Shown here: piece by piece, positions 10,651 through 34,930 of the stretch
Layout: every line of letters begins with the position of its first letter
Numbering within the stretch: position 1 is the first letter of the stretch
Assembly: GCA_025057935.1 (NCBI GenBank)
Contig: JANWUW010000088.1
Coordinates: forward strand, 19,425-83,424
Direction of reading: 5' to 3'
Length of the DNA stretch: 64,000 nt
Source: Thermoflexales bacterium
Lineage (GTDB): Bacteria > Chloroflexota > Anaerolineae > J036 > Brachytrichaceae
Program-made: the position numbers and the translations under genes
The notes under the pieces: model-generated
Seen by the model: the letters and a program-made list of their open reading frames with translations, nothing else
Databases searched by the model: none
What the model was told of the DNA's origin: nothing

Positions 10651-11751
10651 TCAGGAGACGCGCGTCAAGCTGGTGGGCGAGGCAAGCGCTGCTTGTGACG
10701 TGCTCTTGCGCTCCATTCCCACCAACACCTCGCGCAAGTTGTCGAGATCGGAGAGCACAACTTCTGTGCCGCGCGCCACGCAGGAGAGCGGGTCTTCAGC
10801 GACCCACGTGTAGATGTTGGTCTCGTCGGCGATGCGGTCGGCTAAGCCTTGCAGAAGCGCGCCGCCTCCGGCAAGGCAAATGCCGTTGTCCATGATGTCG
10901 GCAACCAGTTCTGGCGGCGTCTCGTCCAGCGTGTTGCGCACCATCTCAACGATCGTGTTCACTGAGTTGGAAAGCGCTTCGCGGATCTCGATGGACGAGA
11001 CCTCCACCGACTCGGGCAATCCGGTGACCAAGTTGCGCCCGCGCATGGTGAATGTTTTCTCCTCGGGCAGAGGAAATGCCGAGCCAATGGCGATCTTGAT
11101 GCGCTCCGCCATGCGCTCACCGATGAGCAGGTTGTACTTCTGACGGGCGTAGTTGATGATGTCCTCGTCCATCTCGTCGCCAGCAACGCGCAGGGATCGG
11201 CTGATCACGATGCCGCCGAGTGAGAACACCGCCACCTCCGTGGTGCCGCCGCCGATGTCCACGATCATTGAGCCTTGCGCCTCGGTGACGGGCAAGCCGG
11301 CACCAAACGCTGCCGCGATTGGTTCTTCGATCAGGTACACCTCGCGGGCGCCTGCCGCACGCGCCGCGTCGATCACAGCGCGCTTCTCGACCTCGGTGAC
11401 GCCGGAAGGGATGCCGATGAGCACGCGCGGGCGCGGGATATTGATGAGGAGGCGGCTGTGGGCTTTGTGGATGAAGTACTCCAGCATTGCCTCGGTGATC
11501 TCAAAGTCGGAAATCACGCCATCGCGAAGGGGGCGGATGGCGACGATGCGCGAAGGCGTGCGCCCTACCATTTCCTTCGCTTCCGCACCGACCGCCTTAA
11601 TCTCGCGCGTCTTGCGGTCCACCGCCACCCACGAGGGCTCGTTGATGATGATCCCCTTGCCGCGCGCGGCGACGAGCGTGTTTGCCGTTCCTAGGTCAAT
11701 CCCCAAGTCCAGTGAGAACAAACCTAGAAAACGGTCTAAGATGCTTGCCAT
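10651..11751 (-). CDS. mreB: rod shape-determining protein MreB
   Basis: LGIDLGTANTLV, actin-fold phosphate and adenosine motifs (DIGGGTTEVAV, GICLAGGGALL). Confidence 0.95.
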   Translation of the reverse strand: MASILDRFLGLFSLDLGIDLGTANTLVAARGKGIIINEPSWVAVDRKTREIKAVGAEAKEMVGRTPSRIVAIRPLRDGVISDFEITEAMLEYFIHKAHSRLLINIPRPRVLIGIPSGVTEVEKRAVIDAARAAGAREVYLIEEPIAAAFGAGLPVTEAQGSMIVDIGGGTTEVAVFSLGGIVISRSLRVAGDEMDEDIINYARQKYNLLIGERMAERIKIAIGSAFPLPEEKTFTMRGRNLVTGLPESVEVSSIEIREALSNSVNTIVEMVRNTLDETPPELVADIMDNGICLAGGGALLQGLADRIADETNIYTWVAEDPLSCVARGTEVVLSDLDNLREVLVGMERKSTSQAALASPTSLTRVS

Positions 11752-11759
11752 TCACAAAA

Positions 11760-11765
11760 ATTATA
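11760..11765 (-). promoter_or_regulatory. perfect TATAAT -10 box 8 nt upstream of mreB ATG (possible leaderless mRNA)
   Basis: Minus-strand read is gcagaaTATAATttttgtgaATG, within a short AT-rich island. No convincing -35. Confidence 0.3.
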
Positions 11766-11830
11766 TTCTGCTCCCCCGTGAGAGACGCCGAGATCGTGAA
11801 AGCCTGTGTTATGTTCAAAAATTGGCGGGC

Positions 11831-11836
11831 TATAAT
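11831..11836 (+). promoter_or_regulatory. perfect TATAAT -10 box 13 nt upstream of tRNA-Leu
   Basis: ggcgggcTATAATcatatgggcatgc followed by the tRNA 5' end at 11850. Confidence 0.35.
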
Positions 11837-11849
11837 CATATGGGCATGC

Positions 11850-11931
11850 GGGGATGTGTCGTAATTGGCAGCCGAGCACGACTTAGGATCGTGTGCCGAA
11901 AGGCGTGTGGGTTCGAGTCCCACCATCCCCA
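11850..11931 (+). tRNA. tRNA-Leu (anticodon UAG), class II with long variable arm
   Basis: Folded by hand. Acceptor GGGGATG/CATCCCC, anticodon stem CACGA/TCGTG with loop CTTAGGA (anticodon TAG), variable arm TGCCGAAAGGCGT, T arm GTGGG-TTCGAGT-CCCAC, discriminator A. No encoded CCA. Confidence 0.85.
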
Positions 11932-11943
11932 ATGTTGGCGATC

Positions 11944-13356
11944 ATGAACTTAAACGTTGAATTCCTCGACACCCACGAAGCACGCCTCACCATCATCCCC
12001 GACGAGACCAGCGTCCAAGCAGCGCGCGACCGTGTGCTGCGCGCAATCAACAAGCAAGTGCGCATTCCGGGGTTTCGCCCTGGGCACGCTCCTGCGCATT
12101 TGGTGATACAGGCTATCGGTGGGCCCCAAGTGCTCGCGCTTGAAGCAAATGAGCAGCTTCTCAAGGAGCTGTATCCGCGTGCGCTTGAGGAGGCGCGGAT
12201 CAACCCCTACGCCGCCGGGGTGCTGGAGGACACGCTCCAAGACCCGCTGCGTTTCGTGGTGCGCGTGCCGCTACAGCCGGTGGTGGATCTCAAGGACTAC
12301 CGCTCTATCCGCCTGCCTTTCCCCGAGGTTGTTGTGAGCGAGGAGGAAGTCGCCGAAGTGCTGGAGGACATTCGTCGCCGTCACGCTGTGCTCGAGCCAG
12401 TCGAGCGCACGGCGGAATGGGGCGATGCAGTTGCCTTTGCCGTCTTCAGCCTTGAGGAGGGCGAGGACAAGCCGCGACTTTTGCTTGAGGCTCGCGACGA
12501 CCGACCGTGGCTGCTTAACCAGCCGAAAGAAGGCGAAGCGCAGCAGGGCTACGTGCCCCAGATCATGGCGATGCTGGTAGGCATGGCAGCAGGTGAGACG
12601 AAAGAAGGCACGTTGACCGCGCCGGAGCGCGAGCCGGAAGCCGATCAACCTACCGAACCGCAGGCTGAAGCAGCACAGCCGCGCACTATGCGCGTGCGCG
12701 TTGAGGTGCGTCGCGTAAGCAAGTACATCCTGCCCGAGTTGGATGATGCGTTGGCGCAAGCAGTGGGCGCTTACAGCTCGTTGGATGAGCTGCGCGCAGC
12801 CGTGCGCGCGCAACTGCGCGATATGAAGCAGCGCGAGGCTGAAAGCGAATATGAGCGCCAAGCCCTCGAGGCGTTCACCGCGCTGGCGGAGGTGAAGTTC
12901 CCGCCCGCCATGCTCGACCACGAACTGAATCAGGTGCTTGCAGAATATAAGCAGCAGATTCAGGAGCAGGAGGGCTTGCCCTACGAGGAATGGCTGAAGG
13001 TCAGCCAGCGCACTGATGAAGAGATTCGCGCCGAGTTGCGCCCCGTTGCCGAGCGGCGCCTGCGCCGCGCGTTGGTGGTCGGCGCGCTCGTGCGCCAAGA
13101 GGGCATTCAGTTGAGCGAGGCAGAGCTCGAGGAGAGCATTGAGGAGATCAGCCGCTTCGCTGCACAGATCGGCGAGAAACGTGCCGATGTGCGTCGCCGT
13201 TACGCCCCTGGCAGCGAGGCGCGCGCTGACCTTCGGGCGCGCATGCTCTACGAGCGCGCGCTCGCGCACATGGCGCGCATCGCTCGTGGCGAGCTTGAGT
13301 CTGCCCAAGCACCAACTGGGCAACCTGCTGAGCCGGTCGCCTCGGCGCAAAGCTAA
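11944..13356 (+). CDS. tig: trigger factor
   Basis: Track ORF 11893 would overlap the tRNA, so it is trimmed to ATG 11944 (MNLNVEFLDTHEARLTI). GFRPGHAP ribosome-binding signature. Long acidic C-terminal arm. Confidence 0.9.
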   Translation: MNLNVEFLDTHEARLTIIPDETSVQAARDRVLRAINKQVRIPGFRPGHAPAHLVIQAIGGPQVLALEANEQLLKELYPRALEEARINPYAAGVLEDTLQDPLRFVVRVPLQPVVDLKDYRSIRLPFPEVVVSEEEVAEVLEDIRRRHAVLEPVERTAEWGDAVAFAVFSLEEGEDKPRLLLEARDDRPWLLNQPKEGEAQQGYVPQIMAMLVGMAAGETKEGTLTAPEREPEADQPTEPQAEAAQPRTMRVRVEVRRVSKYILPELDDALAQAVGAYSSLDELRAAVRAQLRDMKQREAESEYERQALEAFTALAEVKFPPAMLDHELNQVLAEYKQQIQEQEGLPYEEWLKVSQRTDEEIRAELRPVAERRLRRALVVGALVRQEGIQLSEAELEESIEEISRFAAQIGEKRADVRRRYAPGSEARADLRARMLYERALAHMARIARGELESAQAPTGQPAEPVASAQS

Positions 13357-13392
13357 CACAACGCTAATGCCTGCTTGGTAGAGTGCCAACAA

Positions 13393-14064
13393 ATGGCGAA
13401 GCTACCTATACCCGACACCTTCCTGAAGGCGCAGTTCGAGGCGGCGCGCAATGTGATCCCCATGGTCATTGAGACCACGGGTCGTGGCGAGCGCGTCTAC
13501 GACATTTACTCGTTGCTGCTGAAAGAGCGCATCGTCTTCCTTGGCACGCCCATCAACGACCAGGTCGCCAACCTGATCGTCGCGCAGTTGCTCTTCCTTG
13601 ATCGCGAGGACAACGAGAAGGACATCAACTTCTTCATCAACTCGCCGGGCGGCTATGTGTATGCCGGCATGGCGATCTACGACACGATGCAGATGATCGC
13701 TGCGCCGGTAGCGACCTTCGCGGTTGGGCTGACGGCAAGCTTCGGCACGCTGCTGCTGCTTGCTGGCACGAAGGGCAAGCGCTATGCCCTGCCGCACGCC
13801 ACTATTCACATGCACCAGCCCATTGGCGGCGCCCAAGGTCAGGCGACCGATATCGAGATCCAAGCGCGCGAGATCCTGCGCATCAAGGACATGCTCAACA
13901 AGATCATCGTGCGCCACACGAACATGACCGAGGAGCAGGTGCTCAAGTACACCGACCGCGACGTGTACTTGACGCCGGAGCAGGCGAAGGAGCTGGGCGT
14001 GATCGACGCCATCACCGAGCTGGACGCGCGCAAGGCAAAGATGCTCGACGGGAAAGCAGTGTGA
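13393..14064 (+). CDS. clpP: ATP-dependent Clp protease proteolytic subunit
   Basis: [19 protein letters not shown], catalytic Ser context ([11 protein letters not shown]), [12 protein letters not shown] 13393 preferred over the TTG at 13375. Confidence 0.95.
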
Positions 14065-14095
14065 GTCGTTCGTCCGCAGGCTTGCAAATCTCATG

Positions 14096-14122
14096 AAGCC
14101 CCGCCCAAGCGGCGGGGCTTTT
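14096..14122 (+). terminator. intrinsic terminator after clpP
   Basis: AAGCCCCGCC-caagc-GGCGGGGCTT followed by TT. The perfect 10-bp GC-rich stem also argues for the downstream start at 14132. Confidence 0.7.
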
Positions 14123-14131
14123 GAATGTGTC

Positions 14132-14962
14132 ATGAAGATCGTTGTTACTGGGGCAAAAGGCACAATCGGGCAAGCAGTGGCGCGTTACGCTGCCGCACAG
14201 GGCGTGCAAGTGTTGGCAGTGGATAACGTAGGGCGCGGCGATGGCGAAGGAGGCTACTTGGCGGCTGACCTCACTGACCTAGGACAATGCTGCGAAGTAT
14301 TGCACGGCGCTGATGCGGTGATCAACCTAGCCGCGGTCTCGGCAGCGCTGCTATACCCAGGCGCGCAGACGTTGATGACCAACGTGGCGATCACCTACAA
14401 CGTGTGCATGGCGGCGGTGCTGGTCGGCGTGCCGCGCGTGGTTTGGGCGTCGTCGGTGCAAGTGTTTCACAGTTACCCGACGGTGCGGCGCGCGCAGTAC
14501 CGCTATTTCCCCGTGGACGAGGAGCATCCCAACGACCCACAAAACGAGTATGCGCTCTCCAAAGTTCTCGGCGAGCAGATCGCCGAGTATTTCGCGCGCC
14601 AGCATCGCTTGACCGCGGTGAGTTTGCGCTTGCCGGAGGTGGTGCCGCCGGAGATGTGGGCGGATCTGCCGCGCCCCATTGAGCCATGGGAGCACTCGCC
14701 GCTGCCACACTACGTGCACCTGGAGGACTGTGCGCGCGCCTGCTTCCTAGCGGCGACGGTCTCGCTGCCGCCTGCTACCCACCACGTGGTGCTCATCACC
14801 GCTGAGGACACCAGCGCCGACATCCCCACGCGCGAGCTCATCCAACGTTACTACCCCGAAGCAGAGGTGCGCGCAGCGCTGCCTGACTTTGCATCGTTAT
14901 TGAGCGGCAAGCGCGCTGAGGTGTTGCTCGGCTTTCGCGCGGCGCATCGCTGCCATGCTTGA
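14132..14962 (+). CDS. NAD-dependent epimerase/dehydratase family protein
   Basis: MKIVVTGAKGTIGQAV Rossmann motif, YALSKVLGE (YxxxK). Confidence 0.75.
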   Translation: MKIVVTGAKGTIGQAVARYAAAQGVQVLAVDNVGRGDGEGGYLAADLTDLGQCCEVLHGADAVINLAAVSAALLYPGAQTLMTNVAITYNVCMAAVLVGVPRVVWASSVQVFHSYPTVRRAQYRYFPVDEEHPNDPQNEYALSKVLGEQIAEYFARQHRLTAVSLRLPEVVPPEMWADLPRPIEPWEHSPLPHYVHLEDCARACFLAATVSLPPATHHVVLITAEDTSADIPTRELIQRYYPEAEVRAALPDFASLLSGKRAEVLLGFRAAHRCHA

Positions 14963-15003
14963 GACAACAGACGAGCGGCGATTGATGAGCTGCAAGCGCA
15001 GCT

Positions 15004-18000
15004 CTACGCTTGGGGCGTCTTCAACCCCATCGTGCACAGAATCTCGATGCGCGCCTCGGTCGGCTCGCTCTCGACGACCAGCTTTTGCTCATCGTCTAGG
15101 CTGCTCACCAGCTCCACAAGCTCTGCATCTTCCATCTCAAGTTGCAGCGCGCGCCGCAGGCGTTCTTCCACTTCGCCCTGCAGGGCGAAGCGGTAAAGCC
15201 GATCGGCAAGTCTCTGCGCCTTCTGGCGCAGCTCAGCCGACGCTCGCTGATTTTCGGCGATCCTGCGCAAGCGCTGGTATAGCTTGCGGCGCGACCTGCG
15301 CGTCGGCCCAAGCGCGCCCTCCTGCGAAGTGGCGCTCGTCTCTGCTGATTTGAGTGCTTCGTAGGCGGCATGCATGTGTTTGAACACGTCCGGGTTTTCG
15401 AGGGCGGGCGTGTCTGGCTCGCAGCGCATTGCTTCAAACACCTCTGCTAGCGATTGCTCCAACCGCTCGCCACTTGTGCTCACGCGCACAAGGCGGTCTT
15501 CGTGCTCGGCGCCGCGCACAACGCGCGCGAAGATGATCGCGCCATCGGGTCCACCCGTATCGTTGCGGCGGGTGACGTATACCTGCGGCGGCAACGCTTG
15601 TGCGCGCTGGCGCATTTCCTCTGGCGCACTGAGCCATACCTCCAGCGCGCGGCTGGTTAGGTCAACCTCATCGTCCTCTTCGGCGTCGCTGAGCACATGC
15701 GCCTCCTCGGTGTATAGCTCCTTCAGTGTGTGCGCAGCTTTTTCGTCGAAGAACGTCTCGTCTGTGCCGATCACCTGTTGGTTCTCCAGCAGGCGGCGCG
15801 AAAGCGATTGGCGCAGGCGGATGACGCGCTCGATCCCTTCCGCTGGCAAAAACGAATACACAAGGATGGTGGAGTGGCGCTGCCCAATGCGATCCACGCG
15901 ACCTGCGCGCTGGATCAGGCGCACGATTGCCCAAGGCAAGTCAAAGTTGACCACGATGTGCGCGTCTTGGAGATTTTGACCCTCGCTGAGCGTATCGGTG
16001 GTGATCAGCACGCGCAGCTCGGTTTCGCCGCTCTGCAAGCCGCCGTTCGCGTCTGGGCTGAAGCGGCGCACGAGGGCACTGGGGTCGTCAGTTTCGCTAG
16101 TGACCACGCCGACGTCGTTCACACCGCGGTTTCGCAGATAGCGACCGAGTGCCTCGGCAGTGTCGGCGAACTGCGTGAACACTAACACCTTGTCCATCCC
16201 GTGCTCTTCTTGGATTAACCTAAGCAGGTGCGTGAACTTGGGGTCTTCGTCATCGCGCCATGCGCGCGCAAGGTGCAAGATGCGAGCGAGGATCGCGTTG
16301 TCCTGCTCTAGGGCGCGGCTCAGCGCGTCGCGGTTGAAGTACGCTGTTGGCATCCAACGGAAGCGCGCTTCAAACTCCTCCTGCAAGCTGCGATACACCT
16401 CGCCAGCTCGCTGGCGTAATGAGCCAAGGATCGCCTCTGGCGTGGCTCGAGCTTCGAGGTCAAGCTCGTCAACGCGCTCTGTCATGTCAGCGCGGTCTGT
16501 GTCCTCGTCCTCGAACTCGGCTTCAGTGTCTTGAGAGGTCGGATCGAAGCGCGCGATGTCCTGCTTGCCGATGGGCAGCGGCGCGCCCTGCTCCAGCGCG
16601 TGCAGCGCGACGGCGTTGCGCAGGATTTGGCGCTCGATCGAAAGCAGGAAGGCGCGCCCGCTCGACTCCAAGCGCTTGAACAAGCTGGTGCGCGCGAAGC
16701 CAATCAACCGCTGCCCAGCGCGCGCAAGGTCTTCAGCGATCTGTTTGACCTCGCGCGGGGCGCTTTCTAGAGCGCGCGCGTCCACGTAAGCCGCCAGCCC
16801 ATAGCGCGCTAGGGTGAGCTGCTCGATCAGGGTGAGCACCTCATCGCTGTAGAGCCTGTCGTAGAGCGTGCCGCTCAGCGGCACTTTGATCGTGCGCGGC
16901 TGGCGCTCGGGGAAGTAAAAGCGTCGGTTGTTGACGAGCACAAAGTAGCGCCGCTGCTGCGCGTCAAATTGCGCATAGTTGCGGATGATGTAGCCGCGCG
17001 TGCGCCGCACCATGTAATGCCGCAGCAGCTCGCGCCAATCCTCGGGGAACTCGCTCCGCTCGAAGCAGCGTAGGCTGTTCAGCGGCGCTTGAAGTTGCGC
17101 AGCGATCATGTGCTCGCTCACACCTTTCGCTTTTTGCTCCTCTAGGTAGCGCTGCGGGAAGCTGGGCAGCTCTTTTTGCTCGTCGAGGAAAAGGCGGAGC
17201 TGGTTGCTGAGGTCGGTGAAGCGCTTGTTGTATGGCGTGGCGGTGAGCAAGATCACCTGAGGGTCGTTCTCTTGGATGTAGTTGTAAATGGCTTGGTAGC
17301 GTTGCGCCTTGCGGTTGGTGAGGTTGTGGCTTTCGTCAATGATCAGCGTGCGGTAGCGCCGCAGCCGTGGCAGCTCCTCGATGACGCGACCCAGCGAGAG
17401 CGTTTTGGCGTCCGCGCCAACGCACCGCAGATATTCATCGAGGTAGCGCTCCCACATGGGTTGGAGCTTCGGCGGGCAAATCACTAGGGTCGAGCGCGGT
17501 TCGATCTCGTGCAGCACGCGCGCCAGCGCTGTCGCCATCAGCGTCTTGCCCAAGCCGACCACATCGCCAAGGAGCACGCCGCCGTGGCGCTGCACGAGCC
17601 GCGCCGCGGTTTGGACGGCTGCAACCTGGTAGTCCATCAGCTCCTCTCGCAGGTCAGCCGGCAGCTCGAACTCGCGCTTGCCCAAGCGAGCGTCTTCGGA
17701 GAGGTGATAGGCGACCTTGAGATACACGAGGTAAGCCAAGCTGGGGATCTGCGCGGTGGATTCACTCGCCCAAGAGCGCTCAACGGCCTCCACCAAATCC
17801 TCGGAGATGTCTACTGCGCAGTCGCCCTCCCAGCGCTGGTCGAACCACGCCTCGAGCTTGCGCGCGGCGTCTTGGTCAACGACGTCCACGTTCAGCTCGC
17901 CTTGTTCATACAGCCCAGCGTAGGTCAGGTTGCTGCTGCCGACGTAGCCGATCAGCGGGGTGATGGGGTCGTCGCGGCGTAGCAGATAGAGCTTGGCATG

Positions 18001-18405
18001 GAGCGGGTAGCAGAGGTAAAGCTTGATGCGGACGATGCCGCAACGGATCTGCTCGGCGAGCAGCCGCAGCGCTGCTTGCGCCTGCGCGGTGGGAACGCCG
18101 CGGGTGATCTGCGCGCGCGCTTCGTCGATCACCGCTTGCCGCACAGCGCGCCGATGCCTGCCGTCTGCCAACTTGCGCTCAAACGACGCCGGGTCAACCC
18201 CATGCTCCGGCTGGATCATCCCGAGCAGCACGCGGCACGGCGGATCGCTTGGGTTCGCCGGCAGCGAGCGCACGAGGTTTCCCAGAGCGCTCCAGCCTTT
18301 GACGTTGAGGAAGCCAATGCACACCTTGAACTGATAGGCGCGGTTGGCAAATTGATTGAGCTGGTCGAGCAGCTTGACCTGTTCGTTATCGATGATCGTG
18401 GGCAT
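15004..18405 (-). CDS. PLD(HKD) nuclease-domain / SNF2-family helicase fusion protein
   Basis: Single HKD motif LHAKLYLLRRDDPITPLIGYVGSSNLT (17929-18000). SF2/SNF2 motifs GLGKT (17542-17556), DESH (17326-17337), LLTATPYNK, QRAGRVDRIGQ. 1133 aa. Confidence 0.85.
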   Translation of the reverse strand: MPTIIDNEQVKLLDQLNQFANRAYQFKVCIGFLNVKGWSALGNLVRSLPANPSDPPCRVLLGMIQPEHGVDPASFERKLADGRHRRAVRQAVIDEARAQITRGVPTAQAQAALRLLAEQIRCGIVRIKLYLCYPLHAKLYLLRRDDPITPLIGYVGSSNLTYAGLYEQGELNVDVVDQDAARKLEAWFDQRWEGDCAVDISEDLVEAVERSWASESTAQIPSLAYLVYLKVAYHLSEDARLGKREFELPADLREELMDYQVAAVQTAARLVQRHGGVLLGDVVGLGKTLMATALARVLHEIEPRSTLVICPPKLQPMWERYLDEYLRCVGADAKTLSLGRVIEELPRLRRYRTLIIDESHNLTNRKAQRYQAIYNYIQENDPQVILLTATPYNKRFTDLSNQLRLFLDEQKELPSFPQRYLEEQKAKGVSEHMIAAQLQAPLNSLRCFERSEFPEDWRELLRHYMVRRTRGYIIRNYAQFDAQQRRYFVLVNNRRFYFPERQPRTIKVPLSGTLYDRLYSDEVLTLIEQLTLARYGLAAYVDARALESAPREVKQIAEDLARAGQRLIGFARTSLFKRLESSGRAFLLSIERQILRNAVALHALEQGAPLPIGKQDIARFDPTSQDTEAEFEDEDTDRADMTERVDELDLEARATPEAILGSLRQRAGEVYRSLQEEFEARFRWMPTAYFNRDALSRALEQDNAILARILHLARAWRDDEDPKFTHLLRLIQEEHGMDKVLVFTQFADTAEALGRYLRNRGVNDVGVVTSETDDPSALVRRFSPDANGGLQSGETELRVLITTDTLSEGQNLQDAHIVVNFDLPWAIVRLIQRAGRVDRIGQRHSTILVYSFLPAEGIERVIRLRQSLSRRLLENQQVIGTDETFFDEKAAHTLKELYTEEAHVLSDAEEDDEVDLTSRALEVWLSAPEEMRQRAQALPPQVYVTRRNDTGGPDGAIIFARVVRGAEHEDRLVRVSTSGERLEQSLAEVFEAMRCEPDTPALENPDVFKHMHAAYEALKSAETSATSQEGALGPTRRSRRKLYQRLRRIAENQRASAELRQKAQRLADRLYRFALQGEVEERLRRALQLEMEDAELVELVSSLDDEQKLVVESEPTEARIEILCTMGLKTPQA

Positions 18406-18849
18406 GGGCGTGTTGGGTTGAGAGTTCTTAAGCGCGTTTCACATCTGACAGCGGAGATTGTGGAACCACAGCTGAAGGCAGTGTGAGCGCACGCGGCGCG
18501 CTCCTACAAGAGCCACGTGTATGCGGATTGTGCATTGTGGATTGCGCGCGTTGTAGGGGGCGCCTTTGCGGCACCCTAGCTGTTGTGGGCGTATAGTGCA
18601 TCCTCGCGCGGGTACGCAGGCGAGTTGAGTGCGTCACGCGCACAGCAGGAGCACGTAGCGTATGCCCGAGTGCCAATTATGGGCAGCGCGGGCGTGCGCA
18701 GCGCGAATTGTGTGCCTCGTGCATAGCCCAGGGTCGTGTGAGACTACCTGCGTTGGAGACAAGTGCGTCGCAAGTGCGTAGCCAGCAGAGAATGCTCCAA
18801 ACTCCAAACATATCCATGATGCGAGGTGTGCTTCTTCGTGGCAAGACTG

Positions 18850-19608
18850 TCATTTGCTGTCTCGGCGCAGTGTTGGGTTGCGCTGCCAGAACCTCGACAC
18901 CAGTCGGTCGAAGAAATTCTCAATCCGCAAGCCACTCTGGCTGTCTGGAAAGCTCGGGTGTATCTGCACAGGTGTCGCGTTGAAGTCCACCAAGAGCAGC
19001 GCAGTCTCCTCGTAGTGACCAACTTGCGACTCAGGGTCAATGCGCCCTGACACGCCTTGTAGCAACCGAAGCACGCGCCAGGCAAGAGGTGTAGGCTGCC
19101 CGCTCTGATCAATTACTTGCTCGCCACTTGCTGTCTCGTATGGCAGGATCAACAGGAATCCGAAAGCCAGCATGGGGAAACGCGTGTGCAAGTTAGCTGC
19201 GTCCGCAAAGTATTCCTCGAAGCGATTTCTGGCGTTCGCCGAAATACTGGACATCTGGCTCTTAACCGAGAGCGCCAATAGTGGACCGCTAGTCTCTGAC
19301 CACAGTGCGAGATCGAGTGTCTTGTCTACATAGCCTCCTAGGACGTTGACCTCGCGTTCGAGGAGCAGGTTTTGTGCTCTTCGGGCCGGCGCGCTCTCGG
19401 CAGGCACGACATCAATATCGCGGGTGCGTTCGAGGTGCAGGTTTTGGACTCTTCGGGTCGGCGGCAGATCTGTGCGAAGCAGCTCGCGAATGCACCAATC
19501 GTGGAAAGCTCTGATAAAGCTACTGCTGCGCACTGCCGCTTGAGGATTCTGCTTATAGCTCTCGTAAGCAATTCGAGCGGTGTTCTGTAAGTCTGCTAGG
19601 TCAATCAT
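18850..19608 (-). CDS. 252-aa orphan protein, possible PD-(D/E)xK-like nuclease core
   Basis: Starts 16 nt after the methyltransferase stop on the same strand. YVDKTLDLAL-x11-LALSVKSQ-x14-EE resembles a D...SxK...E variant nuclease core. GC is lower than the flanks. Confidence 0.6.
   Translation of the reverse strand: MIDLADLQNTARIAYESYKQNPQAAVRSSSFIRAFHDWCIRELLRTDLPPTRRVQNLHLERTRDIDVVPAESAPARRAQNLLLEREVNVLGGYVDKTLDLALWSETSGPLLALSVKSQMSSISANARNRFEEYFADAANLHTRFPMLAFGFLLILPYETASGEQVIDQSGQPTPLAWRVLRLLQGVSGRIDPESQVGHYEETALLLVDFNATPVQIHPSFPDSQSGLRIENFFDRLVSRFWQRNPTLRRDSK
19354..19463 (-). repeat. in-frame 38-nt near-duplicate at 72-nt period inside the 252-aa gene
   Basis: 19354-19391 and 19426-19463 match at 34/38 nt. 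They encode P(T/A)RR(V/A)QNL(H/L)LER twice, 24 aa apart. Confidence 0.75.
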
Positions 19609-19624
19609 TTTTTGACTGTTTCGG

Positions 19625-22600
19625 TCAAGTTGAGTGCGCTTTGCTAATGCGTGCCCGCACGAGAGCAGACAGCTCAGCGTATAAGTCGTCCCGTGCAGAC
19701 TGCGTTAAGCCTAGAGCATCGAGTAGCACCGTATCTAGCACTTGTCGGTCCGCCTGCTGCAACTCCTCGTCGAGATCGTAAATGACACGGCATTGCATTT
19801 GCTCAACTGCCTCGATGAGCGCTGCTGTGCGCTTCTTGCCTAGGCTACTTGGGGTAACAATCGGCAGCTCGTTAGCGATGCTGACGTTGATCCCTGACGC
19901 GCCAGCACCAGGCTTGCGTCCAGTCAACTCGAAATACAAGAATGAGAATGAGAAGTTAAGCAATCCGAACAGCACTCGCTCGTCAATCTCTGTTTGATAC
20001 CCGTAGAAGTTCTTGTTCAGCGCACAACTATCAAGATTCCAAGCGAAGAAATAGCGCCGATACACAATCTCAGGCACAACCACTCTGCTACGCAGCAATT
20101 CTCCCAGCTCATACCAGTGGCGCCGTCCCCTGAAGAATGGACGGCGATGAATACCCGCTTTCTCGGCTGCTTGGATATAGTCTCGCACAAGTCGATCCCT
20201 GCAGGTGCGATCAGCGATTAGCACCCAGTAAGCAGCATCTTCTGCGCGGAAGCTGTATCGCTTGCATTCGTTGACGGAGCGCATCACAGGCAATAAGTGG
20301 GAGTCTGGCAGCTCGACTTCTCGTGGCTCTCCGAATGCTGTGGTCAAGTAGAGTCCTGGCGAAAGCCGTTTCACGAAGAAGAAGTCGTTCGCACCAGTAG
20401 TCACCCCGAGACGGGCTACTGCGATCTGTCTGACGGGGATCATCTGCGTGTGAGCCATCAGTAAGTGGAAGACATTTGATGCGCGCAGGTACTTACCCCA
20501 CTTGCTGCCTTCATAGCGTTGCTTCTCATGAAAGGCGAGACTTGCTCCTATACGCTTGCTATCTCGCTGCGATAACCCCTGATTCCAGAGCTCACTACGA
20601 GATACAGGTAGAATGCAACAGTCCGCGCATGTTATTGGGACGCAAGTGTTGTCTGCAGCTTTGAAGACCTCGCCAAGCGGCACCTCGATGAAGGGATGCT
20701 TGAACAGAATGAAACGCACGAAGTCATCCTTGTCGTGACACGCACTGTTGCCAACTAGCGCAATAACAGTGTTAACCTCAGCCCGGCTAAACGAGCGCTC
20801 AGCGCTGTTGTCTATGACCATCCTGAGTCGCCCTTGCTGCAACAAAAACGCTTGCAAGTCACGCCCGTAGCCCACATCGAGCCACGAGTTGGAAGTGATA
20901 AAGCACAGCGTGCCTTTCGGTCCGAGCAATCGCAGGGAAGCAGCGTAGAAGTAGACGTATAGGTCCGCCCAGCCGCTTATGCTTCGTCCATTGCTCGACA
21001 AGCCAGTTCTCACTGCTAGTTGTTGAAGCTTCTCGCGGTAGTTTTGTTTCTGCTGCTCCCATTCACGTGAGCCTTCTCCGCCAAACTCTTCTGGGCTCAG
21101 GCTGGGTGGAGCTATCATCTGCTTGCGCACGTAGGGCGGGTTGCCGATCACGATGTCGAAGCCTTGCGCTTGACCTCCGAAGATTTCCACGAAGGCGATG
21201 TCCCACACGAACGGGGGGTTGCCTCCAGCAGCGTTGAGCGCGCGCTGCGCTTGTCGCAGGCGTTCGTGCTCTGCTTCGAGCGTGGCGATTTCTGCAGCGA
21301 GCGCCTCGTGCTTATCAGCAGCGCCGTCATGGTCGCCGACGCCGCCTACACCGATGCTGAGCTGCGCGCCGGGCAGGTTTGCGAGCGCGCGGCGCTTGTC
21401 CTTCAACGCGTCGCCGAGCGCCTTGATCCGATGTTGCAGGATGTCATGGAACAGCTTGACTTCTGCGTGTCGCAACGCCGACTCGCTCATGCTGGAGCTG
21501 CCCTGGTAGAAGCGCAACTTGTCTGCCTTGAGTTGCGTGATGCGGCCTTGCAGGTTGGGCGGCAGGTTCACGGCGCTGCGGCGCAGCCCGAAGAGCACAT
21601 CGCCGACTTCTTGCACGAGGCTGTCGCCCTGGCGCAGCTTAAATGAGAGGTTGGGCAGCAGCGGCTTAAGCTGCGCCTCGGGCTGGCTCAGCTCGGTCTC
21701 GACGGTGAGCTGGAGCCACAAGCGCAACTCAGCAACGTGCACAGCCCAGTCCATCGCGTCCACGCCGTAGAGCTGCTCGCCGATGATGCGCCGTCGGCGG
21801 TCGTAGGGCGTCTCCTCGCGCCCAAGGGCGTAGGCGCAGCGCGCTTGGAGGTCGTCCAACACTTGCAGCATGCCGACGAGGAACGCGCCGCTGCCGCAAG
21901 CGGGGTCGCAGATGGTGAGGCTGCGCACGGCTGCGTCGAGCGCTGACCAGAGATTTCGCTCTGTGATGCGCTGGTCGGCTTCTTGTTTTTGGTCTGGCTC
22001 GACGGCGAAGACCCACTCGTAGAGCAAGTCGCGTGATACGTCGAGGCGATTCGCCAGCGCGTCCACAAGCGCTAAGCGGCACATCAGGTCTATCTCCACG
22101 CGCGGCGTGTAGAAGATGCCCGCGCGCCCGCGTTGGTCGTCAACAGCGCGCCCGCGCTCGGTGAGGTTAACCAAGCTCTCGTACACCTTGCCGAGCATCT
22201 CGGGGTCCACTGCGACTTCTACGTCCAACGGCGTGGATTCACTCACGGTGAAGTTGTAGCGCTCCAAGAAGCCCGGCGTGCTGTCGTTGAACGCATCGAA
22301 GAGCTGCTCGAAGAAAGCGTCGGGGATGTTGAAGCGGCTGCTGTGTTTGGTGTCGAGATGGTTCTCGGTGAACAGCCCGCCGTTGAGATACGGCATGTGC
22401 GCCAGCGCCTCGCGGATGTGTGGCGGGAAGTGCGCGTGCGCGCTGCTGCCAGCTTGAAAGCGCCGATTGAACGCTTCAAAGAACAGCACTTGCAGCCACT
22501 TCCTGAAGAAAGCGTCCTTGCCGAACGCTTGCTCTCGGTAGCTCTTCCAGAAGTGGCGCACGAAGTGGCGGTCGTTCCCGAGCCAATAGCCGCCATCGGC

Positions 22601-23272
22601 GTAGCGCTTGCGCTGGATGAAGTAGAGGAACAAGAGGCGGTTGAGGAGCTGAAGCGCGTAATCGTGCGCCCAACGCGCGTCTTTGGTCTGTTCGTGAAGC
22701 TCCGCTTGGAGCGCCTCGAAGACGCGCTTGTAGTCTTCGAAGAAGCGCTCGGTGACAGCCTCTACCTTGAAGGCTTCGTCGAGGCACTGCCGCACTTGGC
22801 TCAAGCTAGGTTCTGCATCGTGCGGCAGGCTAAGTTTTCCGAGCTGCTCCAATGTGGTGCGCGCTGGCGCGTTGCGTTCGTAGGGCAGGGTGCGCAGCTC
22901 GGTGGGAGCGTTTGCATCGTGGTAGCGCGGCTGCGGGCGCACGAACAGCGCTTGGTCGCCTTGCTTGTCGAGGTACACCACGAGATGCTCCTCGGCAACA
23001 GGGCGCAGCTTGCGGAAGATCGCGCGGCGCGTGGTGAGGTTGGGCAGCCGATCCAGTTGCAGCGCGAAGACACGCACGCCACCGGCTTCGGCGATGCGCT
23101 CCAGCGTGACTGTTTGCTGCAGCGGCGCGTCCACGTCCAGACGTTGCGAGCCGTGCTCGACGTTCCAGAGCAGCACCTCGCCGAACAAGACGCGCAAGCG
23201 GTCGAAGGTGATCGGCGAGCCTTCGAGATGTTTGGCAAGACGCTTGAGAACGCTGTGGGTTGAGTCGTTCAT
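19625..23272 (-). CDS. large gamma-class N6-adenine DNA methyltransferase with C-terminal TaqI-type specificity region
   Basis: Motif I DPACGSGAF (21881-21907), motif IV NPPY (21131-21142, FDIVIGNPPYVRKQ), C-terminal GVTTGANDFFFV. 1215 aa. No nuclease motif recognised. Confidence 0.85.
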   Translation of the reverse strand: MNDSTHSVLKRLAKHLEGSPITFDRLRVLFGEVLLWNVEHGSQRLDVDAPLQQTVTLERIAEAGGVRVFALQLDRLPNLTTRRAIFRKLRPVAEEHLVVYLDKQGDQALFVRPQPRYHDANAPTELRTLPYERNAPARTTLEQLGKLSLPHDAEPSLSQVRQCLDEAFKVEAVTERFFEDYKRVFEALQAELHEQTKDARWAHDYALQLLNRLLFLYFIQRKRYADGGYWLGNDRHFVRHFWKSYREQAFGKDAFFRKWLQVLFFEAFNRRFQAGSSAHAHFPPHIREALAHMPYLNGGLFTENHLDTKHSSRFNIPDAFFEQLFDAFNDSTPGFLERYNFTVSESTPLDVEVAVDPEMLGKVYESLVNLTERGRAVDDQRGRAGIFYTPRVEIDLMCRLALVDALANRLDVSRDLLYEWVFAVEPDQKQEADQRITERNLWSALDAAVRSLTICDPACGSGAFLVGMLQVLDDLQARCAYALGREETPYDRRRRIIGEQLYGVDAMDWAVHVAELRLWLQLTVETELSQPEAQLKPLLPNLSFKLRQGDSLVQEVGDVLFGLRRSAVNLPPNLQGRITQLKADKLRFYQGSSSMSESALRHAEVKLFHDILQHRIKALGDALKDKRRALANLPGAQLSIGVGGVGDHDGAADKHEALAAEIATLEAEHERLRQAQRALNAAGGNPPFVWDIAFVEIFGGQAQGFDIVIGNPPYVRKQMIAPPSLSPEEFGGEGSREWEQQKQNYREKLQQLAVRTGLSSNGRSISGWADLYVYFYAASLRLLGPKGTLCFITSNSWLDVGYGRDLQAFLLQQGRLRMVIDNSAERSFSRAEVNTVIALVGNSACHDKDDFVRFILFKHPFIEVPLGEVFKAADNTCVPITCADCCILPVSRSELWNQGLSQRDSKRIGASLAFHEKQRYEGSKWGKYLRASNVFHLLMAHTQMIPVRQIAVARLGVTTGANDFFFVKRLSPGLYLTTAFGEPREVELPDSHLLPVMRSVNECKRYSFRAEDAAYWVLIADRTCRDRLVRDYIQAAEKAGIHRRPFFRGRRHWYELGELLRSRVVVPEIVYRRYFFAWNLDSCALNKNFYGYQTEIDERVLFGLLNFSFSFLYFELTGRKPGAGASGINVSIANELPIVTPSSLGKKRTAALIEAVEQMQCRVIYDLDEELQQADRQVLDTVLLDALGLTQSARDDLYAELSALVRARISKAHST

Positions 23273-32570: not shown

Positions 32571-34930
32571 TTAAGCGCAGACTCGCTGGTAGCGTTGCTG
32601 GAGTTCCGCCAGGCGGTCGAGATGCTCTAGGGCATGTTCAGCGGCGAGCGTGCGGGCTTCTGCCAAACCCTCAGCGAGGGCAGCGCAGCCGTCCTGCGTA
32701 GGATAGTGCTCTAGGACGCGCACCAGCATGCTGAGGCTCAGGATCAGGCGGGGCAGGAACGCCCGCGGGTTGTCCCGAGCAAGCTGGCGGCGGATGCTCA
32801 CGGACTCCAGCGCTGCCTTCAGCGCCGCCTCGCGCTGCCCGACCTCGGACAGCCTCGCGCCGAGGTTGTGGAGGCTTGCAGCCAAATCGGGCAGGAACGC
32901 CTGCGGGTTTGCTTGGGCAAGCTGGCGGTAGAGGCTCACTGCCTCCTGCGTCGCCTGCAGCGCCGCCTCGCGCTGCCCGACCGCACCGAGGGCACAGCCA
33001 AGCATCCAAAGCGCCTCTGCCCGCTCTTTCTCTTGGCTCGCAAGCGCAGCCCACACTCGATACACCTCCACCTCGAACGCCCGTAGCCGCAGCGTTCGGT
33101 CAGGCGCAGGCAACGCTCGATGAAGCGACCGCACTAGCTCAAGCATGCCTGCCTCGGGCAACGATCGCCACTCCGCCAACATCGCTCGTAGATTCCCCTC
33201 CTGCGCCTCGAGCTGCGTCACTGCTCGCCGATCCTCCGACGAGAGCCGCGCCGCCCACGCGCGCCACGTCGGCAGTAACTCTGCCCAGCGCTTCCGCCGC
33301 ATATCCTCACTCAGCGGAAAGTGCCCGCGGGCATATTCGCTCACTGTGGCGTGCCAGCGCCACGCCTGAATCTCAGGGTCAAAGTCCGCCAGCGCCGCTT
33401 CGCGCAGCGCCTGCACTCCCTCGTGCGTAGCCGCACGCTGCAGCAGCATCTCTGGCGCGATGTTCGCAGGGAACAACAGCAGCGCCTGCCACGCACCTCG
33501 ATGCCGCTTTCCCAGCCGCTTGGCGCTCCAGGCGTAGATCCTCTCCAACTGCGCCTGGAAGTCGCCCTGGCGCGCCCGCACTTGCTCCAGCACTGCGCGC
33601 AGGTCGCGCCGCCCAGCATGCACAACCAGCAGCTCGACCAGCCGCGGATGACCATCGCTCGCAACGGCAATCTCCTGAGCTTCGCTCGTCTCCAGCGGGA
33701 TGTTCCTCTGCCTAGCCAGATACAGCGCCTGGTATGTCGCAGCTTGAGTGCCCACTCCCTGATGGACGAGCAGGGGCGCGGCCGCAGGCACTTTCTCGAG
33801 CAGTAGCGATAAGCGCGACACGATGATCGCCGCGCTCCCTCCGCCGAGCTGCCTCAGGAACTGCTGCACCTGCGCCAGCTCGCCCTCGGGCAAGGCGTGC
33901 GCGTTGTCCAACACGAACAGAGTGGGCTGCAGCCGTGCGTAGGCAACCAGCTCGGCGCTCACCGCCTTGGGCGCAAAGCTCTGCGGCTGCACCTGCAGCC
34001 CCTCAGCAAGTTGGTTGAACAGATCAGCCGCCGTGCTGGGAGCATCGTCGGGGCAAGCCGCGTATGCAACCCCGCCCGGGAAACGCCATGCATTGCGATT
34101 CGCTGCCTCTAGCGCTAAGCTGGTCTTGCCGATAGCGGGTGCGCCTGAAAGGACGACCACGCAGGGCGGCTGCGCCAGTCGCTGCGCCAGCCTGACCAGC
34201 TCCCGCCCGCGACCGAAGAAGAACTTGGATCGCGCAGGCAGGTTGCCGCGCGGCTGACGCTCGTCTATCCACGGCTCGCTGCGAGTGAGGTGCTCGAAGC
34301 GAAGCGCATCATCGCCCAGCAACACCACCTCGTGCGTGGTGACTGCCCGTTGAGCGCGGCTGACTGCCTCCCGCAGCGGGTAACCGTCCGTCAGCTCGGC
34401 GTAGAGGCGAGCCGCGAAGCGCACCGCCTCGGGGTCGAGGACAGTCTGGGTGTGCCCAACCACGGCGCGCTGCTTTCTGCTTGACCAGCGCCTGCGCCAC
34501 CGAGTGGGTGTCGGCAGCGCTCTCGCAGCCGTTGAGCACAACCAAATCCAGCGGACGAGGCAAGCTTCCCAGGGCAGCGATGATTTCGTCCGTGGTGGCT
34601 TTGTGCGCCTGCCCGAACTCGTCTTCGAGCAGCAGCCCTCCCTTCCAAGCGTGACCGCTGAAGTGCAGCACGTGGGGGAAGAGCTGCTGGGTCTCAGCGC
34701 GAGGAGAGAGGGCGAAGTTTGTCTAGGGTAGGGGGCTGCAGGCGGGTGAGGTAGAGAGGGATTTGGCTCTCGCGTGCGGCTTGGCAGAGCTCGTGCCACT
34801 CCCAGTGCAGGTCGAGCGGCGTTGGAGGGGTGTCTGGGTGTTCGGGGTCGTGGACAGGCGCGGCGAGGAGCGCCAAGATGCGCAGCCTGTTGGCGAGGTC
34901 AGAGCTTGATTGCCGGGGCGCGCCTGACAT
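32571..34930 (-). pseudogene. CHAT (caspase-like) protease - STAND/NB-ARC NTPase - TPR protein, interrupted by two +1 frameshifts
   Basis: The protein continues across three track ORFs: 35047-34694 (from M at 34930), 34671-34309 and 34799-32571. CHAT dyad: HFSGHA (His 34651-34653) and LNGCES (Cys 34525-34527). Walker A GAPAIGKTS (34122-34145), Walker B LFVLDNAH, C-terminal TPR repeats. Frame breaks near 34712 and near 34466. Confidence 0.75.
32751..32982 (-). repeat. 138-nt-period TPR-coding DNA repeats (two ~94-nt cores, ~84% identical)
   Basis: 32751-32844 versus 32889-32982. The terminal 25 nt cagcgccgcctcgcgctgcccgacc are identical. They encode 46-aa GQREAAL... repeats. Confidence 0.7.

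Follow-up and report, generated by a model that had tools for sequence, protein, structure and literature searches.

This locus raises the question of what a protein that carries a single phospholipase D (PLD) nuclease domain in front of an Snf2 motor does in the cell, and with which partner it acts. The locus lies in the window, by which we mean the whole stretch of 64,000 nucleotides (nt) analysed here, from contig JANWUW010000088.1 of a Thermoflexales bacterium. The protein, called P0001, is encoded close to a large adenine methyltransferase on the same strand:

15004..18405, minus strand: PLD-Snf2 nuclease-translocase gene (P0001), an open frame of 1133 amino acids (aa); predicted restriction subunit
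19625..23272, minus strand: 1215-aa Eco57I/MmeI-type N6-adenine methyltransferase; predicted modification and target-recognition subunit

We consider it likely, with a probability of about two in three, that P0001 and the adjacent 1215-aa methyltransferase form a two-gene defence module, ATP-dependent and similar to restriction-modification systems, in which P0001 is the restriction subunit. An earlier note on this DNA had likened the protein to type I, III and ISP enzymes, which is apt at the level of the system, and had overlooked the link to the adjoining gene, with which P0001 is predicted from sequence comparison to form a conserved pair as its restriction half. The module is very common but uncharacterised, and it represents a two-gene variant of the PLD-motor restriction systems already known. 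It is among the commonest restriction-like gene pairs that still have neither a name nor an experiment, and no named or tested two-gene PLD-Snf2/methyltransferase system was found in the literature searched.

The conserved gene pair

Full-length homologues of P0001 have 1100-1160 aa, the same set of Pfam domains and 47-75% identity, and they occur in Chloroflexota, Cyanobacteria, Bacteroidota, Armatimonadota, Acidobacteriota, Verrucomicrobiota and other phyla. Relatives are encoded in at least 590 species-representative genomes and also on thirty plasmids, and the names that databases give to the family are 'helicase-related protein' or 'NgoFVII family restriction endonuclease'. We examined 86 distinct loci, with helicases 40-75% identical to P0001, and observed that 77 of them have a methyltransferase homologue next to the helicase gene, on the same strand, usually downstream and with a median gap of 32 nt. 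Nine loci are without the pairing, and six of these are cut by a contig end or lie within about 2.4 kb of one. Loci that had been labelled as methyltransferase-first (MT>HEL) with negative gaps are, according to their coordinates, overlapping starts in the usual helicase-first order; the methyltransferase does come first in the window and in the loci L001, L056 and L090. We define the module as a full-length PLD-Snf2 protein of about 1060-1250 aa encoded beside an Eco57I/MmeI-type methyltransferase of 1000-1370 aa on the same strand, and the window locus belongs to it.

The assignment of the methyltransferase is based on Pfam matches (Eco57I, 1.9e-27, and MmeI_Mtase), on PADLOC matches to REase_MTase_IIG, DrmMI and PglX, and on two motifs:

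21881-21907, minus strand: motif I DPACGSGAF, residues 456-464
21131-21142, minus strand: NPPY, residues 711-714

The N-terminal domain of the enzyme is conserved with the pattern LFxExLGW ... PD ... EHL. Its family consensus has no E-x-K, and in the window protein N78 replaces the Asp of PD, which suggests a restriction-endonuclease fold that has gone inactive; single-chain type IIG/IIL enzymes (MmeI, Eco57I) have an active PD-(D/E)xK nuclease at the N-terminus. Because the E-x-K is missing from this domain, the PLD domain of P0001 is probably the sole nuclease of the core pair, and the N-terminal domain of the methyltransferase is a candidate for docking the helicase. The N-terminal 450 aa are the best-conserved part of the partner (residues 30-80 correspond to 23035-23185 on the minus strand). 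At L007, tblastn detected a full-length methyltransferase homologue at 11456-15121 on the plus strand (45% identity, query residues 4-1215). The deposited calls have instead an unannotated 759-aa open reading frame (ORF) on the other strand, which is probably an error of gene calling in the record.

The two proteins also vary together. Distances between the helicases correlate with those between the N-terminal 450 aa of the methyltransferases (r 0.73, Mantel p 0.001) and at a lower level with those of the target-recognition C-terminal end (r 0.35), the mean identities in this comparison being 58%, 41% and 25%. High co-variation at the N-terminus and low co-variation at the C-terminus are what one would expect of a motor and a methyltransferase body that are inherited together while the specificity regions are swapped, and that perhaps also function together.

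One PLD unit and an Snf2 motor on one chain

Which activities P0001 would bring to such a module can be read from its domains, the first of which is the nuclease:

17761..18405, minus strand: N-terminal single-HKD PLD nuclease domain, residues 1-215 (from PLDc_2, RE_NgoFVII, alignment and model)
17929..18000, minus strand: catalytic motif H136-A-K138 ... D146 ... G156-S-S-N159, residues invariant

The start codon is backed by homologues that align from M1-P2, and D6 and N7 are invariant in two alignments of 66 and 34 homologues. In the AlphaFold2 (AF2) model the PLD unit is an alpha/beta fold in which strands and helices alternate, with a helical hairpin inserted at about residues 82-121. Pfam gives a single PLDc_2 stretch at residues 106-192 (E 2.7e-9; 37-40 bits with a cut-off of 27) and RE_NgoFVII at 130-190, which also exceeds its cut-off. 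The residues H136, K138, D146, G156, S157, S158 and N159 are invariant across both alignments, and P0001 thus has the HxK followed by G(S/G)xN within one fold unit that defines the single-HKD PLD superfamily nucleases of the Nuc/BfiI/SauUSI type. The motif had been placed at codons 136-159 (nt 17929-18000), which is exactly right; its spacing had been given as H-x-K-x4-D, which is wrong, as position H+7 is the variable R143 and the conserved Asp is D146, at H+10. SauUSI also departs from the canonical Asp at H+7 and has Glu there (PMC7913695). When the profile of the PLD domain was compared with PDB sequences, the best match was SauUSI (7clg_A), with a weak E of 0.014 and an alignment that spans HAK...GSSNLT, and the best PADLOC model for P0001 was 'HKD+Snf2' (PDLC01075, 2.4e-44).

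That there is one copy only of the HKD motif was upheld by Pfam, by profile-profile comparison and by fold searches, and the cryptic second motif by which the earlier note would have been refuted was not found. Pfam at E<=10 gave no second PLD-like region in residues 436-722 and 900-1133, and an alignment of the PLD-domain profile with the profile of residues 233-1133 in hhalign had a probability of 0.2% and did not touch the HxK region. The family alignment has no further conserved HxK, and the model of the C-terminal part gave no PLD-like fold match. One candidate for a cryptic HKD, a match to PP_kinase_C_1 (12.5 bits, E 0.11), was rejected as it sits on helices without a conserved His or Lys. 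The PLD-domain profile was also searched against 1.84 billion representative sequences, which gave 370 clusters at E<=1e-30. Among the 150 representatives listed, the match is N-terminal in nearly all; a few start later and four give two stretches, and those of about 1060-1250 aa are evidently full-length proteins. P0001 has one PLD unit per chain.

How such a half-site would become an active nuclease has been answered for two solved relatives. SauUSI (PDB 7CLG) is an ATP-driven translocase and a stable dimer through its N-terminal PLD domains, with one pre-formed HxK active site (PMC7913695). MtsD, the nuclease-motor of the MANTIS system, is seen by cryo-electron microscopy as a dimer with the nuclease domains as the interface and one PLD site, and it has been described as a SauUSI-like module that was repurposed to act, downstream of a methyltransferase, on DNA that is unmodified (bioRxiv 10.64898/2026.09.23.753747). 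The claim of the earlier note that a single HKD must pair with a second copy is by this precedent sound in kind; it is already established for the solved relatives and adds little by itself. The alternative offered with it, cutting by collision, found no support. In that alternative P0001 would translocate as a monomer, and the PLD site would be complete only when two converging motors join their half-sites. The single half-site per chain would allow this, and two-site communication is needed by type III and ISP enzymes, which have asymmetric sites and ATP-dependent long-range communication; MANTIS, too, restricts best at inverted site pairs. However, both solved PLD-motor relatives are stable dimers through their nuclease domains, the SauUSI site is pre-formed, and SauUSI cuts single-site DNA as well. 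We know of no PLD nuclease with an active site that is assembled only transiently, and we regard collision as very unlikely. Obligate dimerisation of P0001 is favoured, by analogy, because SauUSI and MtsD are stable dimers of this kind.

The remainder of the chain consists of the motor, a large insertion and a C-terminal domain:

17176..17640, minus strand: Snf2 ATPase lobe 1, residues 256-410 (SNF2-rel_dom, ResIII and DEAD matches)
17542-17556, minus strand: Walker A GLGKT, residues 284-288, invariant
17326-17337, minus strand: DESH, residues 357-360, invariant
16249..17175, minus strand: inter-lobe insertion, residues 411-719, mostly helical protrusions and a small beta unit (479-507)
16453-16548, minus strand: disordered acidic loop, residues 620-651, with a predicted local distance difference test score (pLDDT) <50
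15781..16248, minus strand: Snf2 ATPase lobe 2, residues 720-875 (Helicase_C at 723-841)
15880-15912, minus strand: motif VI QRAGRVDRIGQ, residues 832-842, invariant
15007..15768, minus strand: family-specific C-terminal domain, residues 880-1133, a beta-hairpin sheet and a five-helix bundle

The superfamily 2 (SF2)/Snf2 motif set, which had been reported from about residue 284 onwards, is present in full and invariant in the family alignment, and so is TATP at residues 388-391. In Pfam, SNF2-rel_dom, ResIII and DEAD match across residues 259-392, SNF2-rel_dom with 51.7 bits (cut-off 24.9), and Helicase_C scores 57.6 bits. The AF2 model of the whole protein (pLDDT 81.7; predicted template modelling score, pTM, 0.75) contains the PLD unit, two RecA-like lobes, the insert and the C-terminal region, and with its motifs and Snf2-like fold the motor is a Swi2/Snf2 family SF2 ATPase. 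All of the top 50 Foldseek matches of this model in the PDB are Swi2/Snf2 proteins, the first being Escherichia coli RapA (E 2e-16, about 1100 aligned columns), followed by SRCAP, SWR1 and Chd1. A RapA architecture is common to BREX-related helicases, and the RapA-led Foldseek result agrees with this (PMC12839542).

The same match might be taken to mean that P0001 is a housekeeping Swi2/Snf2 remodeller of the RapA type, with a role in transcription or repair, given that no structural match ranks above RapA, which aligns with most of the chain, and that housekeeping genes lie on both flanks of the locus. However, RapA is without a PLD nuclease and the NCBIfam RapA score of P0001 is far under the cut-off (72 vs 576 bits), while the P0001 family is patchy, cross-phylum and plasmid-borne, and its loci have the methyltransferase linkage and carry defence cargo. 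Such a housekeeping role seems extremely improbable.

No Pfam family was detected in residues 436-722 of the inter-lobe insert at E<=10. The insert contains a strongly acidic loop, residues 620-651 (DPTSQDTEAEFEDEDTDRADMTERVDELDLEA). In SauUSI an acidic linker has been proposed to be a DNA mimic that restrains the nuclease (PMC7913695), and to give the loop of P0001 a similar role would be speculation by analogy.

The C-terminal tail had been described as helical and unassigned. It is not purely helical, for the models have a beta-hairpin sheet made of residues 942-976 and 1119-1129, and it is still without a fold match: when the C-terminal 254 residues were modelled alone (AF2 pLDDT 83.6), the model had no match among PDB folds (best E 0.4), and Pfam at E<=10 gave chance-level matches only for residues 900-1133. 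Residues C995, G1030, G1033 and G1127 are invariant in the family alignment. According to the models, the tail is a conserved, folded domain that is not a PLD domain. We also considered whether it is the RapA C-terminal domain or an inactive restriction endonuclease domain, for which no support was found: RapA aligns with the whole chain, and the isolated tail matched nothing in the PDB.

The proposed mechanism among known restriction systems

If P0001 and the methyltransferase act as a pair, analogy with SauUSI, MtsD and BfiI suggests that two protomers of P0001 would be held together by their PLD domains and form one metal-independent active site, which would cut first one DNA strand and then the other by way of a phospho-histidine intermediate. 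The methyltransferase would read a short asymmetric site with its C-terminal target-recognition region and methylate one strand of the host DNA, by analogy with type III, ISP and MANTIS systems and with the Synechocystis enzyme M.Ssp6803IV. On unmodified DNA the methyltransferase could, following the same analogies, recruit or license the PLD-Snf2 dimer, and the dimer would track along duplex DNA with ATP and cut away from the site. Docking is likely to occur between the C-terminal domain of the helicase and the N-terminal domain of the methyltransferase, which is conserved and apparently dead as a nuclease. In the window, the slot between the core genes contains in addition a methyltransferase-associated 252-aa gene, probably of a small site-specific endonuclease.

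HKD+Swi2/Snf2 effectors have already been described, which had escaped the earlier note, and the fusion is named as the effector of Type-2 BREX-related systems (PMC12839542). In MANTIS (Gao_RL, the Type-2 DUF499-centred BREX-related system), MtsD has, like P0001, an N-terminal single-HKD PLD domain and an SF2 ATPase of the Swi2/Snf2 class. Its partner is an N6-adenine methyltransferase, by which short asymmetric sites are hemimethylated, and the module described here has an adenine methyltransferase too. MANTIS consists of MtsA, MtsB, MtsC and MtsD, whereas the core here has two genes, and its Eco57I/MmeI-type methyltransferase of 1100-1250 aa has a conserved N-terminal domain of its own. P0001 scores 135.5 bits with NCBIfam NF042964 (phospholipD_antiphage), which we take to represent MtsD and which has a cut-off of 1100, in two matched stretches of which the best is residues 691-916. 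It scores 111 bits with the DrmD model (cut-off 610) and 103 bits with the DpdE model (cut-off 500). P0001 is thus below the family cut-offs of MtsD, DrmD and DpdE, and it is not a member of the MANTIS, SauUSI or type III families, although its proposed way of working is like theirs. DUF499, DrmA and DrmB (DUF1998) were absent from the locus and from the large ORFs of the 64-kb window, and MtsB (DUF3780) was absent from the neighbouring genes, the small DUF3780 protein having not been searched for window-wide.

SauUSI, a type IV restriction enzyme of Staphylococcus aureus, resembles P0001 in that a single chain carries the PLD nuclease at the N-terminus and the SF2 translocase behind it. It differs in being autonomous: target recognition is by an SRA domain of its own, the DNA attacked is methylated, and there is no partner methyltransferase. 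Its motor is absent from the Snf2-dominated Foldseek list of P0001. Type III (EcoP15I Mod/Res) and type ISP (LlaGI) systems likewise have both a target-recognising methyltransferase and an SF2 motor that bears a nuclease. The two-gene logic of type III is the same as here, but the Res nuclease is a C-terminal PD-(D/E)xK domain whereas that of P0001 is an N-terminal PLD domain. The C-terminal domain of P0001 matches no nuclease fold, and the protein is not a type III Res subunit. Type ISP enzymes are single polypeptides with an Mrr-like nuclease, in contrast to two genes and a Snf2/RapA-like motor in this module. Class 1 DISARM (DrmD, DrmC, DrmMI, DrmA, DrmB) has the same Snf2 helicase, PLD nuclease and methyltransferase activities, which is also seen as partial DrmD and DrmMI matches in PADLOC and NCBIfam, but DISARM has the PLD nuclease (DrmC) and the Snf2 helicase (DrmD) as separate proteins and P0001 fuses them. 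In CglI and NgoAVII a PLD nuclease and an SF2 ATPase are coupled, but as separate subunits (R2H2). PbeA is an HKD-SF2 fusion like P0001, but its partners are a CxC ABC ATPase and DndE; the match of P0001 to the PbeA model in PADLOC reaches only 4.3e-11, over residues 89-314.

A related pair is found on plasmid pSYSX of Synechocystis sp. PCC 6803. There the helicase (WP_011153866, 39.5% identical to P0001 over its full length) comes first, a VapBC pair occupies the slot, and the 1100-aa methyltransferase slr6050 follows, without a 252-aa gene. The slr6050 protein is homologous to the window methyltransferase in its N-terminal and catalytic parts. It has been assigned the asymmetric motif GAm6AGGC, tentatively as M.Ssp6803IV, and its knockout never segregated; its helicase partner was left undiscussed (PMC6105098). 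We infer that the failure to segregate would reflect the loss of protection against the adjoining active nuclease-motor. If the module works as proposed, this would explain why slr6050 resists deletion in Synechocystis.

Several points weigh against the two-gene restriction-modification reading. The module is predicted here from genes, sequence comparison and modelled single-chain structures, and the loci examined are the 80 best matches, a sample with a bias to closer relatives. Three loci with full flanks (L028, L048 and L055) have no adjacent methyltransferase at the threshold used. The authors of the Synechocystis study read the non-segregation of slr6050 as essentiality only (PMC6105098). 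DNA cleavage by MtsD is yet to be shown in vitro, and MANTIS requires the AAA+ loader MtsA, and MtsB for methylation (bioRxiv 10.64898/2026.09.23.753747); the MANTIS analogy may fail at this coupling step, as the module has neither MtsA nor MtsB. Some of the same points would suit an effector that is independent of methylation, in which phage DNA or replication intermediates would be sensed by PLD-Snf2 alone, next to a methyltransferase that is separate or merely protective, or in which there is BREX-like exclusion without cutting. The three loci without a detectable adjacent methyltransferase and the cleavage by MtsD that is yet to be reconstituted are consistent with it, and some nuclease-helicase proteins do defend alone (HmaA, PMC11232893). 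We give this very little probability, considering that the helicase and methyltransferase genes lie so regularly together on one strand (77/86, with the short gap given above), that the helicase co-varies with the N-terminal part of the methyltransferase, and that the catalytic His, Lys and GSSN are invariant, which speaks for an active nuclease. Should the two-gene reading be true, a PLD-Snf2 effector would discriminate self from non-self in a methylation-dependent manner without the AAA+ loader of MANTIS, and this would narrow down the least that is needed to couple a motor nuclease to a methyltransferase.

The 252-aa gene and the surroundings of the locus

In the window the slot between the two core genes is occupied as follows, and homologues of its gene were found at three other loci:

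18850..19608, minus strand: 252-aa gene, probable small type II-like restriction endonuclease (PADLOC REase_II, 2.5e-13)
18406..18849, no strand: 444-bp non-coding spacer from the 252-aa gene to the helicase gene, which no coding-strand ORF of >=60 aa fills
L090 7001-7705, L091 6176-7732 and L092 1857-2579: homologues of the 252-aa gene

The 252-aa protein has no Pfam match, and its family is rare, with 19 proteins. In all three contexts examined the homologues lie directly downstream of Eco57I-type methyltransferases, long or short. At L090 the order of methyltransferase, 252-aa gene and PLD-Snf2 gene is the same as in the window, with a helicase 29% identical to P0001; the two other contexts have short methyltransferases of 530-600 aa and no helicase nearby. 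Since the homologues are always behind Eco57I-type methyltransferases, the 252-aa gene goes with the methyltransferase and not with the motor, and the protein may be a small cognate endonuclease under the same methylase as the PLD-Snf2 protein. The regular position also spoke against the gene being random cargo, and its absence from all of the 88 helicase-centred loci L001-L088 against its being a core third component.

The match to a type II endonuclease model raises the question of whether the 252-aa protein is the primary site-specific endonuclease at the window locus, with PLD-Snf2 as a secondary processive shredder or back-up and not the first cutter. Such a division of labour would agree with the constant position of the homologues behind Eco57I-type methyltransferases, including short ones that have no helicase nearby, and with the recurrence of the three-part arrangement at L090 in spite of the distant helicase. 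On the other hand, none of the 88 helicase-centred loci has a 252-aa homologue, and among the examined loci only L090, which was itself found through its 252-aa homologue, pairs the gene with a PLD-Snf2 gene. We consider it unlikely that PLD-Snf2 has only the second place, and since the 252-aa gene is absent from L001-L088, PLD-Snf2 must suffice as the nuclease in the family at large. A more elaborate form of the two-gene reading is tentative and, in our view, rather unlikely as a whole: the module would be a loader-free minimal counterpart of MANTIS and type III, in which the N-terminal domain of the methyltransferase docks and licenses the dimer through the C-terminal domain of the helicase, and the window methyltransferase would in addition guard against two nucleases, the 252-aa endonuclease and the translocating PLD shredder, as a two-tier system with a single specificity.

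The base composition changes in this part of the locus. The guanine-cytosine (GC) content dips to 52-56% at 18800-21000 of the window, vs 60-65% around it, and the dip covers the 252-aa gene and that 3' part of the methyltransferase gene which codes for target recognition. A similar dip (51-53% vs 59-61%) is seen at about 6000-7500 of L090, where it takes in the 3' end of the methyltransferase gene as well as most of the 252-aa homologue. A joint import of the target-recognition end and the 252-aa gene from a short type II system was considered and found weak, the short methyltransferases being 22-27% identical to that of the window. Where the window has the 444-bp spacer, L090 has a 160-aa gene, of which no remnant was found in the spacer, and a promoter and terminator scan gave nothing above chance, with one weak promoter-like site at 18844-18816 on the minus strand. 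At L091 two diverged 252-aa paralogues stand in tandem.

The slot between the core genes is a hotspot for unrelated defence and toxin cargo (L008, L040, L042, L060, L061, L080, L082, L084, L001 and L089). About fifteen loci have a slot of 0.7-2 kb between the helicase and methyltransferase genes with mutually unrelated genes inside, namely Schlafen/AlbA_2 ATPases, AAA_15/21 ATPases, a MORC-like ATPase with HSDR_N, DUF3800, PIN/VapC toxins and an Mrr_N protein; at L001 the cargo is AAA_21 plus DUF4276. The embedding of cargo has also been described for BREX-related loci (PMC12839542) and Hma loci (PMC11232893). The genes directly downstream of the methyltransferase are likewise mixed (AAA_21, DprA-like, YhcG, Schlafen). 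A universal DprA-like third gene in this position was unsupported in the sample: BLAST clustering of 52 downstream genes gave one cluster of 5, which includes both of the scanned DprA-like (DNA_processg_A) proteins, and the other genes are heterogeneous.

The flanks of the window locus are housekeeping genes, with an epimerase, trigger factor and mreBC on one side and dnaN and aroC on the other, and because such genes lie on both sides, the island is confined to 15004-23272. About 9 kb from the restriction-like locus, a 742-aa ORF at 32571-34799 on the minus strand matches AAA_16/AAA_22 and TPR, a combination that suggests a STAND-like NTPase.

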